Virus record (IMG/VR): IMGVR_UViG_3300025131_000017 | Span: 17,556-81,555 of that record | Length of the DNA: 64,000 nt | Strand: one strand, 5' to 3' | Source: a virus | Part shown: positions 9,999-10,212 of the stretch, one piece after another | Layout of the letters: every line of letters starts with the position of its first letter | How positions within the stretch are numbered: position 1 is the first letter of the stretch | Made by a program: the position numbers and the translations under genes | Notes under the pieces: model-generated | The model's input: only the letters and a program-made list of their open reading frames with translations | The model's database searches: none | What the model was told of the DNA's origin: nothing

Positions 9999-10033
9999 AA
10001 AAAAAGAAACCCCAACCTTTCGATTGGGGCTTC
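9999..10033 (-). terminator. intrinsic terminator
   Basis: GAAGCCCCAATC-GAAA-GGTTGGGGTTTC followed by T7; near-identical to the 7201 terminator. Confidence 0.85.
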
Positions 10034-10212
10034 CCGTGTTTGATAGTTTCCTATCTTACACAATCCAAGGAGAATACATGGATTTGTGGTGAACTCACTT
10101 CCTGTACTACATGGGGGTTATTTCCCCTCGCTTAGTGTGAGCCTCTTCTCTTGTATTATAGGATGCTTATAAACCCACCCCACAGGAATCAGACCATTAT
10201 TACTTCCTTGAT
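9999..10212 (-). ncRNA. putative structured non-coding RNA (about 210 nt)
   Basis: own promoter and terminator, no ORF behind the RBS-like site (ATG-GTC-TGA), several stems including a GAAA tetraloop. Confidence 0.55.

Follow-up and report, generated by a model that had tools for sequence, protein, structure and literature searches.

Small RNAs transcribed from an early promoter of their own and ended by their own terminator are known from several phages: the pRNA of phi29, RNAs C and D of T4, and the C4 RNA of P1 and P7. The phi29 pRNA makes loop-mediated pseudoknot contacts and is represented by a family in Rfam 15, and pRNA-dependent packaging is known only from small phi29-like phages. 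Pseudoknots are also found in the H-type riboswitch aptamers (SAM-II, SAM-V, preQ1-II, and preQ1-III) and in the acceptor arm of the viral transfer RNA (tRNA)-like structures of the turnip yellow mosaic virus (TYMV) type. The hepatitis delta virus (HDV)-like ribozymes follow a layout in which P1.1, P4, and the joint with the catalytic C lie between the 3' strands of P1 and P2, with tight joints around the hairpin. In this work we analyze a stretch of 64,000 nucleotides (nt), hereafter the window, which corresponds to bases 17556-81555 of the 81,555-base IMG/VR virus record IMGVR_UViG_3300025131_000017, rated complete. The minus strand at positions 9999-10212 holds a unit, enclosed by a promoter and a terminator, that has no open reading frame (ORF) of at least 25 amino acids (aa), and 111 nt of this unit form a conserved core that is predicted to fold into a pseudoknot and that very likely represents a credible new structured-RNA family of marine phages.

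Homologues of the unit were reached by translating its single long frame through its one stop (P0001) and searching a collection of 5.8 billion proteins. This search returned one 75-aa "hypothetical protein" (P0002) on 6 contigs, with 43/51 residues identical and an E-value of 1e-19. Patterns back-translated from the alignment of P0001 and P0002 then led to L109, a locus that is part of the 14.5-kb IMG/VR contig L110. The core of the window and that of L110 are 82.9% identical over 111 nt (blastn, E 5.5e-23), and our model of the core (R1) scores 140.7 bits on the former and 139 bits on the latter. The G+C content of the core is 46%, compared to 34.6% for the window. When the whole genomes of the window phage and L110 were compared by tblastx and blastn, the two had only two items in common, the core and one protein of 115 aa in the window (18965-19312) and 146 aa in L110 (11135-11575). 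This membrane/coiled-coil protein appears to have a hydrophobic segment at its N terminus and matches no Pfam family significantly. Its gene is about 9-10 kb away from the RNA in each of the two phages; we considered the protein as a linked partner of the RNA and rejected it. The genes flanking the core are unrelated between the two phages and the similarity ends abruptly on both sides: homology with L109 begins and ends at the closing stem P1, with none upstream of 10198. The remaining proteins of L110 give no clue to its host or family, its Pfam matches being limited to a C5 methylase, an SLT lysozyme, and a kinase-like P-loop; eight of its proteins have no PHROG match, and a tblastn search of phages with its 328-aa protein was empty.

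The original prediction had proposed a non-coding structured phage RNA with a pseudoknot in a cassette of its own, and the comparison with L109 bears this out, since both crossing helices (H1 and H2, Table 1) are kept there and H2 is compensated. The homologue covariation that it called for was run on the two sequences. In the alignment of the two cores (A4), 52/52 cells of the 26 pairs are standard, compared to 38-50% when the partners are slid by 1-3 columns, and the changes within the pairs amount to one double and two one-sided substitutions, none of them pair-breaking. The double change lies in H2, which in L109 reads GACUGAC/GUCAGUU, with C-G replaced by G-C (columns 62/105) and G.U by A-U (columns 59/108). 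P1 is paired in 8/8 cells; one of its U-A pairs becomes U.G in L109, where the stem is extended to 6 bp (GAUGGU/GCCAUC). Of the 21 substitutions, only 4 affect paired columns, of which there are 52 (P = 0.0036). The hairpin P2a lies inside a 23-nt block that is identical in the window and L109, including its invariant 11-nt loop, which contains the palindromic UUAUAA; the loop of P3 is variable, with an A to U change in L109 and CAA instead of TAA in the relative that encodes P0002. As judged from the protein, this relative has F for L (CUC to UUY) in the 5' arm of H2, which would keep a U.G or U-A pair, and its ends GAY-GGN and ACN-AUH would lengthen P1 as in L109.

Each of the two sequences has 4 G.U pairs, which become A.C when read on the other strand; the fold is therefore limited to the strand read from the promoter, and this bias agrees with the direction of both the promoter and the L109 genes. 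In our model, P1, H2, and H1 can stack end to end into an 18-bp column, with a 4-nt CUGA/CUUA linker crossing H2, a geometry suggested by the 0-nt and 1-nt joints between the contiguous 3' arms.

Table 1. Features of the RNA unit and repeats of the surrounding early region (window coordinates).
Feature	Position	Strand	Details
sigma-70-type promoter	10219..10246	-	-35 TTGACA 10246-10241, 16-nt spacer, -10 TATAAT 10224-10219
5' leader, non-conserved	10198..10212	-	15 nt; ribosome-binding site (RBS)-like AAGGAAG 10209-10203
mini-ORF ATG GTC TGA	10197-10189	-	sole ORF behind the RBS-like site
conserved RNA core	10087..10197	-	111 nt, common to the window phage and L109/L110
P1 5' arm UGGU	10193..10196	-	within ATG GTC (10197-10192); pairs with ACCA 10090-10087
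H1 5' arm UUCCUGU	10182..10188	-	pairs with ACAGGAA 10105-10099; 7 pairs, invariant in both sequences
P2a hairpin	10158..10178	-	GUGGG 10178-10174, loop UUUAUAAGCAU 10173-10163, CCUAU 10162-10158
H2 5' arm GGCUCAC	10137..10143	-	pairs with GUGAGUU 10098-10092; 14/14 cells paired
P3 hairpin GGGG-AAAUAAC-CCCC	10113..10127	-	stem invariant; TAA stop of the window's long frame falls in the loop
continuous 3' strand ACAGGAA-GUGAGUU-C-ACCA	10087..10105	-	pairs in turn with the 5' arms of H1, H2, and P1
two lineage-specific 3' hairpins	10042..10088	-	CACAAAUCCA/UGGAUUGUG and GAUAG-GAAA-CUAUC
intrinsic terminator	9999..10035	-	14-bp stem 10035-10004, GAAA loop, then 7 T
palindrome CGATATATCG	9952-9961	.	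cassette border, just past the terminator of the RNA unit
CGATATATCG copies	5988-5997, 7286-7295, 8544-8553, 9448-9457, 9952-9961, 11808-11817		
D1 promoter repeats	5379-5422, 6070-6113, 6545-6588, 7626-7669, 7934-7977	+	

The promoter, RBS-like site, mini-ORF, pairings, terminator, and palindrome of the original prediction are exact to the base, and so is its description of a promoter and a strong terminator enclosing a stretch free of ORFs. The promoter matches the consensus at 12/12 positions and has a TG at 10227-10226 that makes it an extended -10 promoter (TGnTATAAT), with a start site predicted near 10212. There are 3 such 12/12 sites in the 11 kb between 5000 and 16000, where base composition predicts 0.027. 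The terminator stem has 14 pairs (-21.6 kcal/mol), and both signals are far beyond chance. Its core, CCCAATCGAAAGGTTGGG, recurs in a terminator of the opposite (plus) strand at 7199-7230. From promoter to terminator there is no minus-strand ORF of at least 25 aa, the longest frame being one of 21 codons that starts from GTG. This absence is not an assembly slip, because two further public runs yielded DNA contigs that match the sequence without indels, those of X4 over the whole unit and those of X9 over 10074-10344. Two RNA-library runs (X16 and X17) each gave one low-depth contig, both in the methylase gene (10330-10589) and none over the unit, and are uninformative on its transcription. The unit is predicted to yield a discrete and abundant early transcript of about 214 nt, which would consist of the 15-nt leader, the core, the two lineage-specific hairpins (-8.0 kcal/mol for CACAAAUCCA at 10088-10079 with UGGAUUGUG at 10067-10059, and -5.3 kcal/mol for the one with a GNRA loop at 10055-10042), and the terminator.

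We consider it very probable that the element is a functional structured RNA, and we assign a probability of about 60% to a more specific reading, namely that it is a stand-alone early structured RNA of a new family, that is, a small-RNA gene with a 111-nt pseudoknotted working core whose folded molecule acts in trans. Several points weigh against this reading or limit the evidence for it. The chance that all 26 pairs stay standard under random substitution is 2.4e-4, a value that is optimistic, P1, P2a, and P3 having been drawn with both sequences in view. A fairer test uses the 14 pairs of H1 and H2, which were set from the window alone in the original prediction: the chance that 17-21 random substitutions leave all 14 standard is 0.015-0.033, or 0.005-0.007 when at least one double change is also demanded. 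H1, P2a, and P3 are invariant and thus uninformative on pairing, and a shuffle control (249/500) cannot discriminate with two rows. The homologue set comprises two DNA sequences (the window and L109/L110) and one relative known as a protein translation (P0002), which together represent three lineages; the element is present in 0/41 related phage records, most of them fragments that end short of the region, and model R1 finds no further copy in 61 sources with 569,653 bases. None of the analyses run pointed to a target, partner, or ligand.

The fold of the window sequence taken by itself adds to these points. All four pairings of the original prediction exist and the crossing helices are conserved, but on the window alone they are at chance level, and both 3' hairpins (CACAAAUCCA/UGGAUUGUG and the GNRA one) lie outside the core, cannot be aligned to L109, and are absent from it. 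Without the terminator, the minimum free energy is -43.8 kcal/mol (z = -1.23) and 20/200 shuffles fold equally well; it is the terminator hairpin that lowers the z-score to -4.28 when the unit is folded entire. Helices of at least 7 bp number 3 in the 175-nt body, compared to a mean of 2.33 in 1000 shuffles; 41.6% of these shuffles reach 3 or more, and helices that cross occur in 33.8% of them. The pairings are thus not beyond chance on the window sequence alone, with no thermodynamic signal once the terminator is removed, and they gain significance only because the homologue keeps them.

The situation of the core in L109 also has to be considered. There it sits in a 564-nt operon spacer (L109 4756-5319, equivalent to L110 about 900-1460, minus strand) that folds at -213.9 kcal/mol, compared to -153.5 +/- 6.8 for its shuffles (z = -8.89), and it is flanked by two long hairpins, a near-perfect one (about 100 nt) and a second one (about 180 nt); the spacer as a whole may constitute a much larger RNA with several domains, or it may serve for processing. 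No promoter or terminator was found near this core, though the contig has sigma-70-type promoters elsewhere, and this lack of signals also speaks against a stand-alone RNA acting in trans, since a role in cis or in processing would explain it no less well.

According to the stand-alone RNA hypothesis, the working part would be the 111-nt core closed by UGGU/ACCA, in which one 3' strand would pair with three upstream segments and form a pseudoknot of three stackable helices. Two hairpins would project from it, one with the invariant 11-nt loop UUUAUAAGCAU and one with a variable loop. The RNA would work as a folded molecule, not as a message, and probably not by antisense pairing. Our best guess is an action in trans in which a protein or a small ligand would be bound through the invariant loop and the junctions. 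That the RNA acts through its shape in this way is suggested by the closed pseudoknot, the invariant loop, and the lack of a conserved neighbor, and we give this part of the functional-RNA reading somewhat less than an even chance. The RNA would be produced by two routes, a private transcription unit in the window phage and excision from an operon transcript in L109, the latter being suggested by a core without signals of its own that lies between two very long hairpins in an operon spacer.

The search for further copies covered several collections, the large ones being scanned by exact short patterns, which would miss divergent copies. A blastn search of GenBank phages with the region 9700-10700 matched the methylase gene and nothing else, the bare window core gave no blastn match, and the L109 core gave 16 records, none of which covered more than 27% of the 121-nt query or had an E-value below 1. 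A 20-mer of the core had 0 matches in IMG/VR; three metagenome contigs that matched it were rejected as chance, having only 22 nt in common. A 19-mer of the invariant block matched L110 alone in IMG/VR and nothing in the GTDB species genomes, and one gapped-pattern match in GTDB, to a metagenome-assembled genome of Nanohaloarchaea, was discarded as chance, as it fits the model over just 17 nt. According to these short-pattern scans, the element is found in only two IMG/VR records, the window's own and L110. The route through neighboring proteins led from the 228-aa methylase to one distant locus, from a 250-aa protein to none, and from a 349-aa protein, used singly or as an alignment, to the same two loci; the early regions of the loci reached in this way hold different genes. 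A search with the read-through translation of L109 (P0006) returned nothing, which is weak evidence, since it missed even P0002, with which it has a 12-residue run in common. It is worth noting that a word-based protein search can therefore miss short relatives.

The Rfam comparison that the original prediction called for gave no family at gathering score: there were 0 matches among the 4227 models of Rfam 15 over the whole window. Thirteen weak matches at E up to 10 on 601 nt were rejected, all of them far below gathering and the best driven by the terminator hairpin, and two matches per bare core at E up to 10 were attributed to chance. ARAGORN finds 0 tRNA or transfer-messenger RNA genes in the window. 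The unit is of the same kind as the phi29 pRNA and the other phage RNAs mentioned above, being an ORF-less phage unit, probably early and abundant, with its function in its fold; it differs from them in having no sequence or model similarity to them, and its phage has a classical large terminase and portal. With respect to small RNAs of the Hfq type, a terminator and a U7 tail are present in the window, and the conserved part is mostly paired.

The core resembles the HDV-like ribozymes, of which the "theta" type occurs in gut phages as described in PMC10879173, in its presence in phages, in the 7 bp of both main helices, and in the order of its parts (5' arm A, 5' arm B, hairpin, 3' arm A, 3' arm B). 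In contrast, its two 3' arms abut with 0 nt between them, the joints of the hairpin are longer (window, 9 and 7-8 nt; L109, 8 and 7 nt), there is an extra outer closing stem, and no Rfam model of the HDV type matches. We therefore rejected an HDV-like identity, given the zero-length segment left for P1.1, P4, and the catalytic C, and the long joints. The H-type aptamers share with the core a compact pseudoknot, a purine-rich, Shine-Dalgarno-like 3' strand (AGGAAGUGA), embedded hairpins, and invariant loop nucleotides, whereas the core is about twice their size, has no start codon after its 3' strand and no conserved downstream gene, belongs in the window to a separate unit ended by a terminator, and has no Rfam match. 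As in the TYMV-type structures, two helices would be stacked via a continuous 3' strand, and this strand leads into C-R-CCA, which reads CACCA in the window and CGCCA in L109. However, this CCA (10089-10087) is internal, paired in P1, and one nucleotide further from the helix than in tRNA, the core has no T-loop or anticodon-like loop, and no tRNA-like family of Rfam matches it. A tRNA-like reading was thus rejected, the CCA being internal, paired, and out of register, and the ARAGORN result empty. Viral structured-RNA candidates have been catalogued from IMG/VR by Fremin, Bhatt and Kyrpides in 2023 (PMC10690425). These candidates resemble the present element in being conserved intergenic phage sequences with covariation from the same data source; the workflow of that study retained only models that matched at least three distinct IMG/VR regions, whereas the short-pattern scans place the present element in two records.

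Among the alternatives, we first consider a self-cleaving or self-processing ribozyme of a new class that would shape the RNA ends of the unit and process the operon transcript of L109. Small self-cleaving ribozymes in phages are distributed as solitary units and in operon spacers, and the core likewise occurs as a solitary unit and in an operon spacer with unrelated neighbors; its compact fold closed by P1 and its invariant loop and junction nucleotides also agree with this model. Nevertheless, no ribozyme family of Rfam 15 appears at E up to 10 on the bare cores, the layout departs from the HDV-like plan, and no cleavage site can be named, so we regard such a ribozyme as unlikely. A broader and equally doubtful idea takes the core, a 111-nt fold in which one continuous 3' strand would hold three helices stacked end to end, as the first representative of a new class of functional RNA that unrelated marine phages would have exchanged by horizontal transfer. 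It would be either a new self-cleaving ribozyme or an abundant early sponge or decoy. A decoy would capture a host factor, for example an immune signaling nucleotide or a defense protein; to our knowledge, a role as host-factor sponge is so far known for phage proteins and not for a phage RNA aptamer.

A cis-regulatory element, such as a riboswitch-like aptamer or protein-binding leader that would control read-through of the terminator toward the cassettes that follow in the window and expression of the downstream genes in L109, would account for the aptamer-like architecture closed by P1. In the window, the terminator lies within about 50 nt of the core, and in L109 the core is 205 nt upstream of a gene of the same orientation with a strong RBS and has no promoter of its own. 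The contexts differ, however: the downstream proteins have 53 aa and 74 aa and give no alignment with E up to 100, there is likewise no relation between the upstream genes (two contexts), and the next gene in the window has its own promoter (9845-9816). By inspection, there is no convincing pairing between the 3' strand of P1 and the 5' half of the terminator, the best being 5 bp, and the hairpin at 10088-10059 overlaps P1 by 2 nt only, again by inspection. Moreover, the stretch between core and terminator is not conserved and no riboswitch family matches, and we consider regulation in cis quite improbable.

The protein-coding question arises from P0002. If the cassette once encoded a protein, P0002 would be the intact relative and the window copy a pseudogene broken by stops. 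The P0002 call on 6 contigs and its similarity to the translated unit count for this view and against a non-coding RNA, and the read-through frame has one internal stop only in the window. However, the long frame is open in 1/3 lineages, that of P0002; in L109 it is broken by a TGA located elsewhere and by three 1-nt indels, with a TAG and no similarity upstream of the core. The 21 substitutions show no codon periodicity (8/7/6, 7/6/8, and 6/8/7 by codon position in the three frames), the 23-nt block is identical without a synonymous change, and the observed changes preserve RNA pairs. P0002 itself starts at a GTG without an RBS and its frame passes through the promoter: its residues 1-21 are the translated spacer after the methylase gene and the promoter hexamers (TTGACA read as L-T). 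A phmmer search of 1.84 billion representatives with P0002 gave no convincing relative, only P0002 itself and two repeat-like, multi-stretch matches (33% and 22% identity). The gene call is most likely spurious, laid over the promoter and non-coding RNA of a close relative, in which, by back-translation, the -10 box would place the start site right at P1. The original prediction had named an intact ORF in relatives as the mark of a decayed gene; P0002 looks like one on the surface, but with the call judged spurious there is no gene remnant, and we find a decayed gene very unlikely.

The RBS-like site followed by ATG-GTC-TGA, to which the original prediction drew attention, is present in the window but is not conserved. 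Bar minigenes are known from phage lambda, and a two-codon minigene or leader peptide translated to tie up ribosomes or tRNA would explain why AAGGAAG lies 5 nt ahead of the mini-ORF, after a consensus promoter and with a spacing like that of real genes nearby. L109, on the other hand, has TTA in place of TGA, so that ATG GTC TTA continues for 16 codons, and has no RBS; the 15-nt leader that bears the RBS is apparently missing from the P0002 relative, as judged from the protein. The ATG is half of the conserved closing stem, because the core ends (G)AUGGU and ACCA(UC) pair. We consider a minigene highly improbable. Just as improbable is a DNA-level element, such as a site for recombination or homing or a signal for single-strand initiation, mobile between phages and with the pairs as a by-product: the core is indeed the sole nucleotide similarity of two otherwise unrelated phages, and it is surrounded by shuffled cassettes that have CGATATATCG repeats at their borders, but its pairing is strand-specific through the G.U pairs and exactly framed by promoter and terminator on that strand, and the substitutions avoid the helices and compensate within them, which a double-stranded DNA site would not need.

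The phage that carries the unit is a tailed phage of an abundant, uncultured marine group, which encodes a large terminase, a portal, a major head protein, a family A DNA polymerase, a DnaB-like helicase, and a ribonucleotide reductase. The head protein (window 24158-25492) has 471 relatives in IMG/VR and leads to no cultured relative, since GenBank phages yield just 9 archaeal tailed-virus records, 8 haloarchaeal and 1 with the host Methanofastidiosa, which match 37% of the protein at 27-31% identity. Despite these matches to archaeal viruses, the promoters, RBSs, and terminators of the genome are plainly of the bacterial type.

The region 5000-13500 is of the early type. Its small cassettes all have a sigma-70-like promoter, many also have an intrinsic terminator, and they run from both sides toward about 8300-8480. 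The palindrome CGATATATCG has 6 copies in the 81.5-kb genome, compared to 0.084 expected, and all of them lie inside window 5988-11817, in the early region. In the 5/6 copies with a detected upstream terminator, the copy is found 40-90 nt past that terminator and ahead of the next promoter, and all six are followed by TA on the plus strand, irrespective of the local direction of transcription; CGATATATCG may serve at cassette borders for the binding of a protein or for recombination. A 44-nt repeat is common to all five early promoters of the plus strand (D1); it has a doubled TTGACA box (TTGACA-N4-TTGACA/TTGTCA) before the -10 and is missing from the minus-strand promoters, and this suggests that the two arms of the early region are regulated separately. 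The terminators at 9558-9525 and 11876-11843 are alike (family D2), and terminator modules seem to be copied together with cassettes.

A second minus-strand unit, at about 11500-11775, is probably the "first" ORF-less unit to which the original prediction alluded. It has a 12/12 promoter (11775-11747) followed by about 240 nt with only 16-27-aa frames and an ATG at the predicted start site (ATG GAA CTG ACC TAA); no canonical terminator was found ahead of the next promoter, and the unit has no counterpart in L110. Two adjacent minus-strand genes, 9143-9328 (61 aa) and 8866-9033 (55 aa), encode proteins with paired CxxC motifs that are zinc-ribbon-like. The 61-aa protein has a 43%-identical counterpart in a related locus (L084, at 15257-15361), in which the cassettes in between are wholly different.

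In practical terms, the locus carries a warning, as gene callers made the "hypothetical protein" P0002 of a public database out of what is most likely an RNA. Our results describe a cassette that is built like its protein-coding neighbors and appears to hold a folded RNA instead, with a pseudoknot that would be under selection in two phages with almost nothing else in common. The core is short (111 nt) and can be synthesized, which makes it a tractable candidate for a new RNA family. The early regions of phages are where host-takeover and counter-defense functions sit, and the known players there are almost all small proteins; the unit described here would add a structured RNA to this set.

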